This document shows positions 15,429 to 19,650 of a stretch of DNA of 64,000 nucleotides, piece after piece. The DNA comes from Patescibacteria group bacterium (lineage in GTDB: Bacteria > Patescibacteriota > Minisyncoccia > UBA6257 > 02-FULL-45-10c): contig JAGWYA010000004.1 in assembly GCA_018969615.1 (NCBI GenBank), positions 9,922 to 73,921 on the forward strand, written 5' to 3'. The position numbers and the translations under genes were made by a program. Every line of letters starts with the position of its first letter. The first letter of the stretch is position 1. The notes under the pieces were generated by a model. It did no database searches. It saw only the letters and a program-made list of their open reading frames with translations, and was not told the DNA's origin.

Positions 15429-15521
15429 GTTTGATAGTATATCGCGCGAAACGATCTTTTTCAAGGGTAAAAACGCGGAAGGATTGTCAAAAGAGGGCGA
15501 ACTTTGTATAGTATCGAGGTC

Positions 15522-16793
15522 ATGGCAAAAAAAACGAGGAAAAAAGTATTCGTTGGCATGTCCGGTGGAGTGGACAGTTCCGTTGCCGCGGCGCTTCTGA
15601 AAGAGCGCGGTTTTGACGTGGTCGGCGTGCATTTGAAGTGCTACAACGTGGACGGCTGTGCCGAGCAGGATGCGGAAGACGCACGCCGGGCCGCGGAAAC
15701 GCTGGGGATCCCGTTCTATGTGTTGGATATGGAGCAGGAATATAAGGACCGGGTCGTACAATATATGGTGGACGGTTATCGAAAAGGGATCACGCCGAAC
15801 CCCGATGTCATGTGCAATAAAGAGATCAAATTCGGGCTTTTCCTTGAGAAGGCGCTGGCAATGGGCGCGGACTATATCGCGACCGGGCATTATGTACGGC
15901 TCAGAAAAGTTCGAGATGCTGGAAATGTTCAAGATGTTGTAACTGATGGAAGCAAGCGAACGGCAGCGAGTGATAGAGCAACTAGAACACTTGGAACGAG
16001 CGAAGCGATAGAACAAGCAGGGCGGTTGAACAAGCGAAGTGATCCATCATTCGAACTTCAGATCGCGCGCGATCTGAATAAGGACCAGTCTTATTTTTTG
16101 TGGACGCTTACTCAAAAGCAGCTCCGGCATGCGTTGTTTCCGGTCGGTGATATGACGAAGCCCGAGGTGCGCAAGCTTGCACGGAAATATAAGCTGCCGA
16201 ACGCGGAGAAGAAGGATTCGCAGGGGATCTGTTTCCTCGGACAGGTGACACTGAAGGATTTTTTGGCCGAGTATATTCCGCAAAAGAAGGGCGTGGTGGT
16301 GAATACGGCCGGTGAAGTGATCGGTGAGCATACCGGAGCTTATTTTTATACGATCGGCCAGCGGGGAGGCTTAGGGATCGGCGGGCATGCGAAGCCGTAT
16401 TATATCGCTGAAAAGGATGTGAAAGAGAATGCGCTTCTGGTCGCGGAGGAGGGGGACCCGGCGCTGTACCGGAAGGAGGTGCGATTAACGAATGTGAATT
16501 TCATCACTGCGCGCCCGGTGCAGGCGCGGACGTCGGTATGGGTGCGCGTGCGATATCGCCAGCCGCTGTTTAAGGCGACTCTCGTTGTTCAAAATGCTGG
16601 AAATGTTCAAGATGTTGTAAATGATAAGAGCGCTAAAAATAGACAAGCCAGCCGATCGAACAAGCGAAGCAGTAGAACAGCTATCACTTATACACTTGTG
16701 TTTGATAAGCCGCAGAAATTCGTCGCGACCGGACAGTCGGCGGTGTGGTATTCGAAAAAAGGTAGAATGCTCGGCGGCGGGGTTATTTTCTAA
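15522..16793 (+). CDS. mnmA: tRNA-specific 2-thiouridylase MnmA, carrying two in-frame insertions of a short repeat element
   Basis: PP-loop SGGVDSS, catalytic-region motifs and the C-terminal GQSAVWY motif. About 55-60 residues longer than typical MnmA because of inserts at about aa 132-175 and 358-387. Start taken as the ATG at 15522; the listed ORF begins at a TTG at 15504. Confidence 0.9.
   Translation: MAKKTRKKVFVGMSGGVDSSVAAALLKERGFDVVGVHLKCYNVDGCAEQDAEDARRAAETLGIPFYVLDMEQEYKDRVVQYMVDGYRKGITPNPDVMCNKEIKFGLFLEKALAMGADYIATGHYVRLRKVRDAGNVQDVVTDGSKRTAASDRATRTLGTSEAIEQAGRLNKRSDPSFELQIARDLNKDQSYFLWTLTQKQLRHALFPVGDMTKPEVRKLARKYKLPNAEKKDSQGICFLGQVTLKDFLAEYIPQKKGVVVNTAGEVIGEHTGAYFYTIGQRGGLGIGGHAKPYYIAEKDVKENALLVAEEGDPALYRKEVRLTNVNFITARPVQARTSVWVRVRYRQPLFKATLVVQNAGNVQDVVNDKSAKNRQASRSNKRSSRTAITYTLVFDKPQKFVATGQSAVWYSKKGRMLGGGVIF
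15915..16044. repeat. Repeat element copy A, inserted in-frame in mnmA (modules ATGTTCAAGATGTTGTAACTGA and GAACRAGCGAAGYGATAGAACA, the latter reiterated)
   Basis: A lower-GC insertion. 26 bp (TGCTGGAAATGTTCAAGATGTTGTAA) are identical to copy B. Encodes AGNVQDVVTD... Absent from canonical MnmA. Confidence 0.7.
16593..16681. repeat. Repeat element copy B, inserted in-frame near the 3' end of mnmA
   Basis: Same 26-bp core plus CGAACAAGCGAAGCAGTAGAACAG. Encodes AGNVQDVVND... Confidence 0.7.
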
Positions 16794-16797
16794 GTAT

Positions 16798-17802
16798 ATG
16801 GTAAGCGGATTTTGGAAAAAGATCGCGGCCCGGGCGAAGAAAGAGAAGCGCCCGATCATGGTTGCAGCGCCGATGGCGAACGTCACCGATGCGGCGTTCC
16901 GGAGGATGCTCGCCAAATACGGAAAGCGCTCCATCCGGAGGAAGGGGTATCTTGATGCATTGTGGACCGAATTCGTTTCGTGTGAGGGGCTTTGTTCGCC
17001 GGGGCGCGATGTTTTGCTGCAGGACCTTATGTATGACCGGTCCGAACGGCCGATCGTCGCCCAGTTCTTCGGTGCGAAGCCTGAACATTTTTATGAATCC
17101 GCCCGTCTGGCGCAGAAGCTTGGTTTTGACGGCATCGATATCAATATGGGATGCCCCGATAAGAACGTCATCCGGCAGGGCGCCGGCGTCGGACTGATCA
17201 GAACCCCCGAACTTGCGCAGGAGATCATCCGCGCGACGATGCGGGGCGCCGGAAAGCTTCCGGTCTCGGTGAAGACCCGCATCGGATTCAATTCGCCTGA
17301 TCTGAAGAATTGGCTGTCGGTCCTTTTGGAGACTGACCCCGCCGCGATCATTATCCATGGCCGCACGAAAAAAGAGATGTCCCTGGTGCCGGCGCATTGG
17401 GATATCATCGGCGAGGCGGTGGAGATCAGGAACGCATCCGGCAAGGATGTGCTTGTCCTGGGAAACGGGGATGTTTCAAGCCTGGAGGATGCACAGAAAA
17501 AATATGAGACCTATGGCGTTGACGGCGTTATGATCGGTCGGGCGATGTTCGGCACTCCTGACTTTTTTGCTCCCAACAAAAAACCGGCAACGCTGAAGCG
17601 GAATTTGAAGCTTGCGCTGGAGCACACGCTTCTTTTTGAGAAACTCTTCAAAGGAGAGAAACATTTTGACATCATGAAAAAGCATTACCGGTCCTATGTT
17701 GCGGGGCTTGAGAACGCGAAAGCCATGCGTTTTGAACTGATGAATCTGAAAAGCCTGGATGCGGCCAAGAAGACATTGAAAAAGCTGATCGCAGAAGCAT
17801 AG
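16798..17802 (+). CDS. dus: tRNA-dihydrouridine synthase
   Basis: About 334 aa from the ATG at 16798. Dus TIM-barrel motifs (MVAAPMANVTDAAFR, INMGCP, catalytic Cys). Confidence 0.85.
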   Translation: MVSGFWKKIAARAKKEKRPIMVAAPMANVTDAAFRRMLAKYGKRSIRRKGYLDALWTEFVSCEGLCSPGRDVLLQDLMYDRSERPIVAQFFGAKPEHFYESARLAQKLGFDGIDINMGCPDKNVIRQGAGVGLIRTPELAQEIIRATMRGAGKLPVSVKTRIGFNSPDLKNWLSVLLETDPAAIIIHGRTKKEMSLVPAHWDIIGEAVEIRNASGKDVLVLGNGDVSSLEDAQKKYETYGVDGVMIGRAMFGTPDFFAPNKKPATLKRNLKLALEHTLLFEKLFKGEKHFDIMKKHYRSYVAGLENAKAMRFELMNLKSLDAAKKTLKKLIAEA

Positions 17803-17835
17803 ACGTCTTGAGGAGGGTGAGGGATAGTATCGCTT

Positions 17836-17870
17836 GACAATAGGGGTAAACTATGCTTAAATTACACCAT
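17836..17870 (+). promoter_or_regulatory. Putative sigma70 promoter (-35 TTGACA, 17-bp spacer, -10 TTAAAT) for the downstream ncRNA candidate
   Basis: Hexamers read directly. The -35 is a perfect consensus. Confidence 0.45.
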
Positions 17871-18187
17871 AGTTCTTTTACCGGCTTGTACTGCTCGTTG
17901 AGCGCCCGTGTGCGTGGGTCAGGGAAATCCGTTCCCGCGCCGCTGCTGCGATCGCGCCAGTACCGGCAAGACGTACGGAGAATACAGCCATGAGGCAACT
18001 CATGGTTCTGCGACCCGCGGCGGGGCCAAACCTCCTGCCTCGCTCTTGGTTGCGGACTGGGCCTTGGACGTCCTCGGCCTGACGGTAGTGTATTCTCTGG
18101 CACTTTAAGTCCTCGACTCTTGTCGAGGCCCAAGCCCTTCGTGCATCTGCCGGAGGCCCCTCGCACATATGCGAGGGTTTTGTTTTT
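17870..18187 (+). ncRNA. Unidentified GC-rich noncoding transcript of about 320 nt, bounded by a promoter and an intrinsic terminator (CCCCTCGCAcatatGCGAGGG followed by T-run at 18157-18187)
   Basis: No credible ORF on either strand; six-frame products are Arg/Pro-rich junk. Many local GC hairpins. A strong terminator 66 bp before aspS. I could not match RNase P P4, a tmRNA T-loop or tag, or a T-box motif. Confidence 0.4.
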
Positions 18188-18252
18188 TAAGGGCTCCGAT
18201 CGAGGAGTCTTTTTTATTTCCCGCGGATGCTGTATATTAGTAAAGTAATTTT

Positions 18253-19650
18253 ATGCGTACACTGATCGCCGATATCGTCAAAAAAGAAGGGGAGAAAGTC
18301 GAGCTGATGGGCTGGGTTGCGGTTCGCCGCGATCACGGCAAGCTTATTTTTATCGACCTCCGAGACCGGAGCGCGATGTGCCAGGTCGTGTTCATCGGAA
18401 AGGATAAAGAGCTCTATGAAAAGGCGAGCCAGCTCCGTTCGGAGTGGGTGGTGAAGATCACCGGTCAGGTGAATAAGCGCCCGGAGAAGTTGGTGAATCC
18501 GAATTTGGTGACCGGCGCCTATGAGGTGCTCGCCGAAGGATTGGAGATCCTGAACGAGGCAACGACCCCGCCGTTCGACCTGGGAACTGATGGGATGGAC
18601 GTGAACGAGGAAGTGCGGATGAAGTACCGCTATATCGACCTCCGCCGCGCGCGCCTGCAGAAAAATCTGAGACTTAGAAGCAAGACCTTGGCTGCTGTGG
18701 ATGAGTATTTGAAGCAGAATGATTTCGTAGAAGTCGAAACTCCTATTTTAGGAAAATCTACTCCGGAAGGAGCCAGGGATTATCTCGTTCCGGTCAGGAC
18801 CTATCCGGGGAAATTTTATGCATTGCCGCAGGCTCCTCAGCAATATAAGCAGCTTTTAATGGTTGGCGGTTTAGAGCGCTATTTTCAGGTAGCCCGTTGT
18901 TTTAGAGATGAAGATACGCGCGGGGATAGGCAGCCGGAGTTCACTCAGATCGACCTGGAAATGAGTTTTGTTAAAAAAGAAGACGTGCTGGATATTTTGG
19001 AGGGATTAATGATTGATGTAGTTAAAAAGGTTTATCCGGAAAAGCATATCACCCAAGTGCCGTTCCCACGCTTGTCCCATAAAGAGGCGATGGAGAAATA
19101 TGGAACCGATAAGCCGGACTTAAGAAAGGATAAAAATGATCCTAATGAGCTCGCCTTCTCGTTTATTGTGGATTTCCCATTTTATGAATGGGACGAGAAA
19201 GAAAAGAAATGGGATTTTGCGCATAATCCTTTCAGTATGCCAGGTGACGGTTCATTGCCTGATGATAAGGCGGAACTGGGCGGAGTTAGGGCTAATCAGT
19301 ACGATCTTGCTTTGAACGGATTTGAAATAGTATCAGGCGGCATCAGAAACCATAAGCCGGAATTGCTTAAAAAGGCTTTTAGCTTACTTGACTACGAAGA
19401 CAGTGTGATTATTGATAAATTTGGCCATATGCTCGAGGCGATGTCATACGGAGCTCCTCCGCATGGCGGCGCGGCTTTCGGGTTTGACCGGTTGATGATG
19501 ATCTTGCTAAATGAGCCGAACATCCGCGAGGTTATGGCGTTCCCGAAGACGGGTGACGGACGGGACCTCATGATGGAGGCGCCGAGCGAGGTGAGTAAGG
19601 AGCAATTACGCGAACTGCATTTAGAAATTAAAGAAGAAAAGAAAAAATAA
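18253..19650 (+). CDS. aspS: Aspartyl-tRNA synthetase, compact form without the bacterial GAD insertion domain
   Basis: 465 aa. Anticodon-binding OB fold. Class II motifs (FRDEDTRGDRQPEFTQIDLEMSF; GGIRNH; GAPPHGGAAFGFDRLMM). Confidence 0.92.
   Translation: MRTLIADIVKKEGEKVELMGWVAVRRDHGKLIFIDLRDRSAMCQVVFIGKDKELYEKASQLRSEWVVKITGQVNKRPEKLVNPNLVTGAYEVLAEGLEILNEATTPPFDLGTDGMDVNEEVRMKYRYIDLRRARLQKNLRLRSKTLAAVDEYLKQNDFVEVETPILGKSTPEGARDYLVPVRTYPGKFYALPQAPQQYKQLLMVGGLERYFQVARCFRDEDTRGDRQPEFTQIDLEMSFVKKEDVLDILEGLMIDVVKKVYPEKHITQVPFPRLSHKEAMEKYGTDKPDLRKDKNDPNELAFSFIVDFPFYEWDEKEKKWDFAHNPFSMPGDGSLPDDKAELGGVRANQYDLALNGFEIVSGGIRNHKPELLKKAFSLLDYEDSVIIDKFGHMLEAMSYGAPPHGGAAFGFDRLMMILLNEPNIREVMAFPKTGDGRDLMMEAPSEVSKEQLRELHLEIKEEKKK

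Follow-up and report, generated by a model that had tools for sequence, protein, structure and literature searches.

A gene for a structured non-coding RNA of about 318 nucleotides (nt), standing alone behind a strong sigma-70-type promoter, is well supported at positions 17870-18187 of the plus strand in the 64,000-nt stretch of a Patescibacteria group bacterium contig (JAGWYA010000004.1) that was analysed here and is called the window below. Also well supported is a small RNA family outside Rfam 15, comprising this RNA and four homologs (at loci L015, L058, L089 and L094 of my comparison), all five from Paceibacteria-like bacteria of the Candidate Phyla Radiation (CPR). The RNA is probably a trans-acting regulator. 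My preferred reading, put forward tentatively, is that of a lineage-restricted, stand-alone structured small RNA (sRNA) acting in trans, possibly via ribosome-binding sites, a function that I infer.

The host is a Paceibacteria-like CPR bacterium, and its nearest loci come from metagenome-assembled genomes labelled Saccharibacteria, Harrisonbacteria or Paceibacterota. An NCBI protein of a "Patescibacteria group bacterium" shows 100% identity to the AspRS of the window. Around the RNA the gene order is EF-P (minus strand), mnmA, dus, the RNA, aspS and ndk.

A stand-alone transcription unit

The locus occupies 17834-18188 (+) and consists of a promoter, the ~318 nt of RNA and a terminator. An initial annotation of this DNA had proposed an independent non-coding unit of about 320 nt here, and the promoter, the terminator and the lack of a conserved reading frame all support it. 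The promoter it described (TTGACA, a 17-bp spacing and TTAAAT) is present, beginning at 17834, 2 nt upstream of the 17836 originally given. Its -10 hexamer, TTAAAT at 17857-17862, is preceded by TG, which makes it a near-consensus extended -10 promoter. A consensus scan of 16500-19500 recognised this as the sole promoter-like site, but shuffles of the same region yield 2.1 such sites on average, so that the match by itself is not significant; the promoter carries weight because it is conserved ahead of the homologs. The arrangement TTGACA-N17-TGC-(T/A)(T/A)(A/T)AAT precedes the RNA in the window, L058, L089 and L094, and no clear promoter was recognised ahead of the RNA in L015. In L094 the promoter is intergenic, and its conservation there is therefore not due to an overlapping coding sequence. 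At the other end, the strong intrinsic terminator that had been noted before aspS was found again as an 8-bp stem at 18158-18177 with the T/U run TTTTGTTTTTT directly after it, and a GC-rich hairpin followed by a U run terminates every homolog.

The features of the locus are as follows.

17834-17839, plus strand: -35 hexamer TTGACA, read from the letters and a consensus scan, and the same in L058, L089 and L094
17854-17862, plus strand: extended -10 box TGCTTAAAT (TG-n-TTAAAT), with a 17-nt spacer from the -35 hexamer
17870-17880, plus strand: predicted 5' end of the RNA and leader motif AGUUCUUUUA, the start (about 17869-17871) being placed from the -10 position
17881-17975, plus strand: variable 5' domain of GC-rich predicted hairpins, including GCGUGGG...CCCGCGC, with the conserved words UGCUCG and GCCCGU
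17976-17986, plus strand: 5' strand of helix P1, CGGAGAAUACA, pairing with 18089-18099
17987-18006, plus strand: P2 hairpin of the four-way junction, 6 pairs, 4 of them changed on both sides
18007-18056, plus strand: P3 hairpin, with an outer helix of 7 pairs, 5 of them changed on both sides
18027-18036, plus strand: apical loop of P3, CAAACCUCCU, with the anti-Shine-Dalgarno-like ACCUCCU (mean unpaired probability of the loop motif 0.98)
18059-18080, plus strand: P4 hairpin GGGCCUUGGACGUCCUCGGCCU, near-identical in L015 and L094
18089-18103, plus strand: 3' strand of P1, UGUAUUCUCUG, then the tail GCAC, which is R-C-A-Y across the five members
18111-18128, plus strand: extra hairpin CCUCGACUCUUGUCGAGG of the predicted fold, in the window only
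18158-18188, plus strand: predicted intrinsic terminator, with an 8-bp stem (6 G-C pairs), a 4-nt loop and then UUUUGUUUUUU
18189-18219, plus strand: second terminator-like hairpin (18189-18212) and T run, between the RNA and the aspS promoter
18228-18252, plus strand: promoter-proximal region of aspS, TGCTGTATATTAGTAAAGTAATTTT, outside the RNA, from comparison with relatives

The RNA body is richer in G+C (60%) than the window as a whole (54%) and than aspS (49%). The stretch used for the folding test (17870-18190, 321 nt) has a folding energy of -143.5 kcal/mol and a z-score of -3.98 against dinucleotide shuffles; the z-score of its minus strand is -3.16 and that of the L094 RNA is -7.17. 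It had also been claimed that the region holds no plausible open reading frame (ORF). Mechanical ORFs of 30-164 amino acids occur on both strands. Translated comparison of the five homologs found no conserved reading frame or small protein: the translated similarities fall in all six frames and on both strands, and switch frame between members. A small ORF in the RNA region was therefore rejected.

Homologs, covariation and architecture

The first homolog search covered 78 aspS-anchored loci from GTDB species genomes, two of which (L015 and L058) contain a sequence similar to the RNA, about 3 kb upstream of aspS and directly before comEC. The contigs of twelve AspRS homologs gave 17 loci, and only L089 and L094 among them carry the RNA. 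All four homologs lie upstream of comEC, at ~3-4.5 kb from aspS. The nhmmer matches are reciprocal among all five members. Furthermore, a covariance model built from the three other junction-bearing members (the window, L015 and L089) recovered L094, which had no part in its making, with 95.3 bits (E = 1.5e-25). The RNAs differ considerably in length, from 178 nt in L058 through 272 nt in L089, ~296 nt in L015 and ~318 nt in the window to ~490 nt in L094. Besides the NCBI genome of the window, the assemblies with the RNA are GCA_900206355.1, JGI 3300027819, CAYHBW01 and CAYUKW01.

Beyond these five, the searches returned nothing that I regard as a member. There are no repeats, and there is no second copy of the RNA in 832 kb of related DNA that includes the whole window. 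A metagenome scan with TGCTCGN{5,6}GCCCGTN{50,79}CGGAGARTRCA, a pattern that fits the three members then known (the window, L015 and L058), gave three matches; each lies in coding DNA, and I take them all as chance. In viral, phage and plasmid collections a first P4 pattern had no match, and a looser one had 38, where the covariance model agreed only at the seeded hairpin; blastn of the RNA against phages and plasmids found no match.

Several counts indicate that the fold has been maintained through sequence change. In the junction domain of four sequences 93.2% of cells are paired, and 12 of the 41 junction pairs are changed on both sides. Sliding the partners by 1-3 columns leaves one or two such pairs, and none of 500 shuffles reaches 12; the small alignment was made to follow the model, and the model derives from three of the same four sequences, so that the counts lean towards structure. 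The independent recovery of L094 and an RNAalifold consensus from a plain MAFFT alignment of three sequences (41 pairs, 9 with compensatory changes) point in the same direction. Conservation and covariation in relatives, on which the initial annotation had staked the RNA, were both found, together with no conserved small protein, albeit in carriers that are not the closest relatives.

The RNA is modular, with a short 5' leader, a variable 5' hairpin domain, the P1 helix, a tail and the terminator. P1 is a conserved helix of 11-13 bp, CGGAGAAUGCA/UGCAUUCUCCG, and in four of the five members it closes a four-way junction formed with P2, P3 and P4. Nine of the 11 pairs in its arms are the same in four to five members; across the members it shows one A-U/G-C compensatory change and two wobble changes, the window having one A-U pair in place of G-C and one G-U pair. 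In L058, the shortest member, P1 is capped by a 5-nt loop and the junction is absent. The tail after P1 reads GCAC in three members, ACAC in L058 and ACAU in L094. The junction has almost no unpaired nucleotides save 6-8 purine-rich ones between P4 and P1, and its strands are short and poorly conserved whereas the helices are conserved. P4 (GGGCCUUGGAnnUCCUCGGCC) scarcely varies between the window, L015 and L094; L089 has a remodelled form, GGUCGCGGAAUUCCGCGAUC, that preserves the pairing.

The periphery is less stable. In L058, L094 and L015 the 5' domain has two hairpins enclosed by a closing helix, 6 of whose 11 pairs show compensatory changes; the domain is rearranged in the window and L089, and the window is without the closing helix. 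L094 has an additional large 3' domain. A long-range helix of GGCUUG (within 17884-17890) with CAAGCC (18131-18136), present in the minimum free energy (MFE) fold of the window, was discarded for want of a counterpart in the other members.

An RNA gene that seems to have outlived its neighbours

In three of the five members (L015, L058 and L089) the RNA is preceded by a gene for an uncharacterised small protein (147-152 amino acids in L058 and L089), which ends in LDNKDKVCLN in L058 and in IDRSMKLCFN in L089. In L058 and L089 the RNA promoter sits inside the last ten codons of this gene. The window has neither comEC nor the small-protein gene, and its RNA is kept with ~30 nt of what is probably the end of the former upstream gene: positions 17834-17863 read, in frame, LDNRGKLCLN, with the stop codon lost and the rest of the gene gone. 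Going by these letters, the stretch is probably a remnant of the small protein's C-terminus, kept as the carrier of the promoter, and L094 retains a similar remnant. The comparison suggests that both neighbours were exchanged around an RNA gene that stayed in place with its promoter.

For the small protein, a profile search of 5.8 billion sequences returned only the three query proteins themselves, and there was no Pfam match. L090-L092 have the protein but not the RNA. Between mnmA and comEC the gene content is highly variable: L082 (4149-4691), L087 (2380-2916) and L088 (670-1206) have a CobA/CobO/BtuR-type gene (PF02572) where other loci have the small protein and the RNA.

Known RNA families and the question of a leader

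At gathering thresholds Rfam 15 identifies only two tRNAs in the whole 64 kb. Permissive cmscan searches were run at E<=10 on 17700-18300 of the window and on L094, and at E<=5 on L058, L015 and L089. For the window RNA they gave three chance-level matches, and none to RNase P RNA, transfer-messenger RNA (tmRNA), signal recognition particle (SRP) RNA, 6S RNA, a T-box or a riboswitch; the other four members, and also the RNA of L007 (described below), gave chance-level matches only. This comparison with Rfam had been recommended in the initial annotation, whose suggestion of a divergent RNase P RNA, tmRNA, SRP RNA or T-box finds no backing in it or in ARAGORN, whereas its alternative of "something new" survives, given that no Rfam 15 family matches. 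In particular, none of the five members matches RNaseP_bact_a/b, the SRP Domain IV models, or the T-box and riboswitch models. No tmRNA, with its tRNA-like domain and tag frame, was found in the window by cmscan, and ARAGORN predicted neither a tRNA nor a tmRNA in 17000-19000. The RsaE model had no match in the members scanned. The 6S models had none either, and in every member both the MFE and the centroid fold consist of several domains and a 3' terminator hairpin, without pairing between the 5' and 3' ends. A kinship of the leader to the 5' end of 16S rRNA was dropped, as there was no match to a small-subunit rRNA model.

I therefore give almost no credence to a highly divergent housekeeping RNA, be it RNase P RNA, tmRNA, SRP RNA or 6S RNA, among the five members. 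The size range, the G+C content and the strong promoter are compatible with one, and CPR RNAs can be atypical, but besides the missing Rfam and ARAGORN matches the RNA is not found around aspS in the closest relatives, varies from 178 to ~490 nt and lacks its main domain in L058, which makes it unfit for an essential universal RNA.

A cis-acting leader, also raised in the initial annotation as a riboswitch-like leader of aspS, has to be judged against the downstream genes. aspS starts at 18253. Its upstream regions, compared in ~17 related loci, have no Shine-Dalgarno sequence, and from these sequences its mRNA appears to be leaderless or to have a very short leader. The elements TATATTAG..GTAATTTTATG upstream of aspS are common to the window, L090 and L095, the last two without the RNA; in these three the aspS -10 box lies 15 nt before the start codon, compared with 7-8 nt in many other relatives. 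In the window this -10-like box, TGTATATT, follows the RNA terminator, and because aspS has its own box, shared with the RNA-less L090 and L095, it can be taken as independent of the RNA promoter. L015 and L089 have a conserved -10-like box for comEC, GGT(A/TAT)AATATCC, just past the RNA terminator. L095 also has a terminator hairpin just upstream of aspS.

A leader of aspS was rejected on these grounds, comEC being downstream in four of the five members and the aspS -10 box lying after the terminators. The more general version, with the junction as sensor of a ligand or protein and the terminator as the gate to comEC ancestrally and to aspS in the window, is very unlikely. The RNA and the downstream gene are co-oriented in all five loci, the terminator comes directly after the junction domain, and four-way junctions are common in riboswitch aptamers. 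However, the downstream gene differs, it has a -10-like box of its own past the terminator in the window, L015 and L089, and the junction strands are the poorly conserved part of a domain whose helices are conserved. Moreover, L058 has no junction, the window has two tandem terminators, no riboswitch model matches, and no anti-terminator pairing with the 3' strand of P1 was apparent by eye (none was computed).

Exposed CCUCC loops and a proposed function

All five members present CCUCC in a hairpin loop with a mean unpaired probability of at least 0.8. It is in the P3 loop of the window (CAAACCUCCU), L089 (AAACACCUCCU) and L094 (GCCACCUCC), in the P2 loop of L015 (AAUCCUCC) and in a loop of the 5' domain of L058 (CCCUCC); the unrelated syntenic RNA of L010 exposes CCUCC as well. 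Of 80 dinucleotide shuffles made for each RNA, 4-8 (5-10%) expose a CCUCC, a figure to be read with the motif having been chosen after the fact and its location varying among members. The anti-Shine-Dalgarno end of 16S rRNA has (C)ACCUCC(U) at its core. In Staphylococcus aureus, the Rsa RNAs and RNAIII use unpaired C-rich motifs to bind Shine-Dalgarno sequences and so stop initiation; loops of this kind are the active part of RsaE and RNAIII in Firmicutes (PMC2790875).

The RNA would, on my preferred reading, act in trans as a stable regulatory RNA, with a rigid scaffold that presents at least one CCUCC loop unpaired (for the window, CAAACCUCCU, which caps P3). Such loops could base-pair with the GGAGG-type ribosome-binding sites of mRNA targets and keep translation from starting, for which the C-rich loops of RsaE/RoxS and RNAIII in Firmicutes serve as the model, and the conserved P1 and P4 helices may additionally bind protein. 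Pairing through the CCUCC loops is offered as the leading hypothesis of this analysis and not as a finding.

A number of observations pull the other way, in addition to the lean of the covariation counts mentioned above. The CCUCC motif was noticed after the fact, and under a looser motif definition an exposed C-rich loop is found in 15-30% of shuffles. The P3 copy of CCUCC is paired in L015, and in the L007 RNA no CCUCC is exposed. In sRNAs that act by base pairing, single-stranded seeds are usually what is conserved; here conservation is highest in two helices, P1 and P4, a pattern better suited to recognition by a protein. I identified no target, and aspS itself is without a Shine-Dalgarno sequence. 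The expression and the ends of the RNA are predicted, and the family is known from five members only. Finally, the distribution is patchy. The carriers fall into three separate clades of the AspRS tree. The closest AspRS relatives of the window, L001/L082 (78-79% identity), as well as L002/L085, L034, L084 and L087, do not have the RNA within 4-7 kb of aspS, and nor do L090-L092, which neighbour L089. Thus the RNA is either dispensable and repeatedly lost, or horizontally transferred, or elsewhere in those genomes.

What other explanations could tie these observations together? Because the best-conserved sequences are helices P1 and P4, the main rival to the CCUCC hypothesis is a protein-binding scaffold or sponge in the manner of 6S RNA, Y RNA or raiA/OLE, recognised via P1, P4 and the junction, with the C-rich loops incidental. 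I regard it as unlikely but deserving of serious attention. The most conserved sequences are double-stranded (the P1 arms, and P4 of L015, L094 and the window), the RNA has a strong promoter and a very stable fold, and a four-way junction with peripheral helices of variable length, as seen here, is typical of ribonucleoprotein RNAs. Yet no partner protein is linked to the RNA, as the small protein accompanies only three of the five RNAs and also occurs in the RNA-less L090-L092; no protein-binding RNA family of Rfam matches, the fold lacks the rod shape and central bubble of 6S RNA, and the patchy distribution speaks against a core housekeeping role.

That same patchiness over three AspRS clades, with the nearest relatives lacking the RNA, would suit non-functional or selfish DNA, that is, the decaying remains of a leader, intron or mobile GC-rich element, or a fast-evolving junk transcript in a permissive mnmA-comEC/aspS slot. 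So would the range of lengths from 178 to ~490 nt with whole domains gained or lost, and the unrelated GC-rich RNAs (L007 and L010) and a 70-nt AT-rich transcript (L006) in the same slot. This is nevertheless a doubtful explanation. Promoter and terminator are intact in the four members with a recognisable promoter, four helices have been kept paired through compensatory changes, and the window gene appears to have outlived the loss of both ancestral neighbours; nor were there repeats, a second copy in the 832 kb, or a phage, plasmid or viral match. A more daring variant of the loop idea, for which I see only a slim chance, is a CPR-specific mimic of the 16S rRNA 3' end, in which the four-way-junction scaffold would display (C)ACCUCC(U) either as a decoy competing with ribosomes for mRNAs led by a Shine-Dalgarno sequence or so as to titrate a factor that recognises the 16S 3' end. 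If this were true, translation would shift towards leaderless or Shine-Dalgarno-less mRNAs such as aspS, a kind common in these reduced genomes, and the GC-rich RNAs of L010 and perhaps L007 would be functional analogues arising from rapid turnover.

Other RNAs in the slot and neighbouring sequences

L007 (752-1175) and L010 (1139-1590) have GC-rich RNAs of ~390 nt and ~415 nt, respectively, each with a consensus promoter and a terminator and with folding z-scores of -5.45 and -7.02. They occupy the same slot before comEC or aspS, match nothing in Rfam and do not align with the window family; in L006 the slot (1545-1667) contains only a 70-nt AT-rich transcript. nhmmer and the covariance model detected no homology between these two GC-rich RNAs and the window RNA, and what is shared is synteny and, in L007, the leader motif. 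Across related lineages one intergenic slot, with mnmA or the small protein on one side and comEC or aspS on the other, repeatedly hosts very stable GC-rich RNAs of unrelated sequence, which hints at rapid turnover of structured RNAs in reduced genomes.

The leader motif AGUUCUUUUA is shared with L089 (AAGUUCUUUGAUC) and L007. In its general form, AGTTCTTT[G/A/T]A, it sits where the transcript is predicted to start, 7-12 nt past a -10 box, with sites at 17871-17880 in the window, 3597 in L089, 796 and 6569(-) in L007 and 7021(-) in L006, and further ones at 711(-) in L009, 8477(-) in L061 and 6903 in L093. In related CPR loci it also precedes several unrelated protein genes. The RNA leader, GUUCUUU(U/G)A, resembles the boxA consensus GYTCTTTAANA (PMC5725501). 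Against a boxA reading stands the same motif at the 5' ends of unrelated mRNAs in related loci, and the motif may instead be a clade-wide promoter-proximal element.

Two neighbouring genes of the window have features of their own. Its AspRS (18253-19650, 465 amino acids) matches only the anticodon-binding and class-II core domains of Pfam and is without the GAD insertion that is typical of bacterial AspRS; the longer bacterial type was matched only among the distant loci L064-L075. The mnmA ORF (15504-16793, 429 amino acids) has two insertions that share AGNVQDVV(T/N)D followed by a basic, serine-rich stretch, and split Pfam matches in the mnmA homologs of L090 and L092 suggest similar insertions there.

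Significance and comparison with known RNAs

The regulatory RNA content of CPR/Patescibacteria beyond the universal RNAs appears largely unexplored, and a literature search turned up no paper on non-coding RNAs of these bacteria. The RNA described here is a concrete CPR candidate, with predicted start and stop signals, covariation support from five sequences and a testable functional idea. Its value is moderate, the family being tiny and patchy and its function inferred.

In functional class the RNA is most usefully set beside RsaE/RoxS, the other Rsa RNAs and RNAIII, which likewise have their own promoter and intrinsic terminator and are non-coding, and whose stable hairpins expose C-rich UCCC/CCUCC loops, complementary to Shine-Dalgarno sequences, of the kind predicted here. 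The window family has no sequence or Rfam similarity to them, so that the likeness is one of functional class and not of homology; it is also larger, reaching ~490 nt, has a four-way junction, and conserves helices rather than loops. 6S RNA (ssrS, or bsrA and bsrB in B. subtilis) is a stand-alone structured RNA of the abundant type, of similar size and fast-evolving sequence, and the 6S-1 RNA gene lies beside aspS in B. subtilis, but the window family lacks the rod-like fold with a central bubble and the pairing of the ends, and its distribution is patchy. With raiA, OLE and ROOL/GOLLD it shares a GC-rich structured island in a lower-GC context, helices supported by covariation and variable peripheral domains; the window RNA, however, matches none of these in Rfam, is smaller than OLE, ROOL and GOLLD, and belongs to a family seen so far in only a few Paceibacteria-like CPR genomes. 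Finally, the SAM-I, cobalamin and yybP-ykoY aptamers resemble it in having a P1 that encloses a four-way junction with an intrinsic terminator soon after, whereas the window family matches none of their models, has unconserved junction strands, is followed by varying genes with promoters of their own and includes, in L058, a junction-less member.

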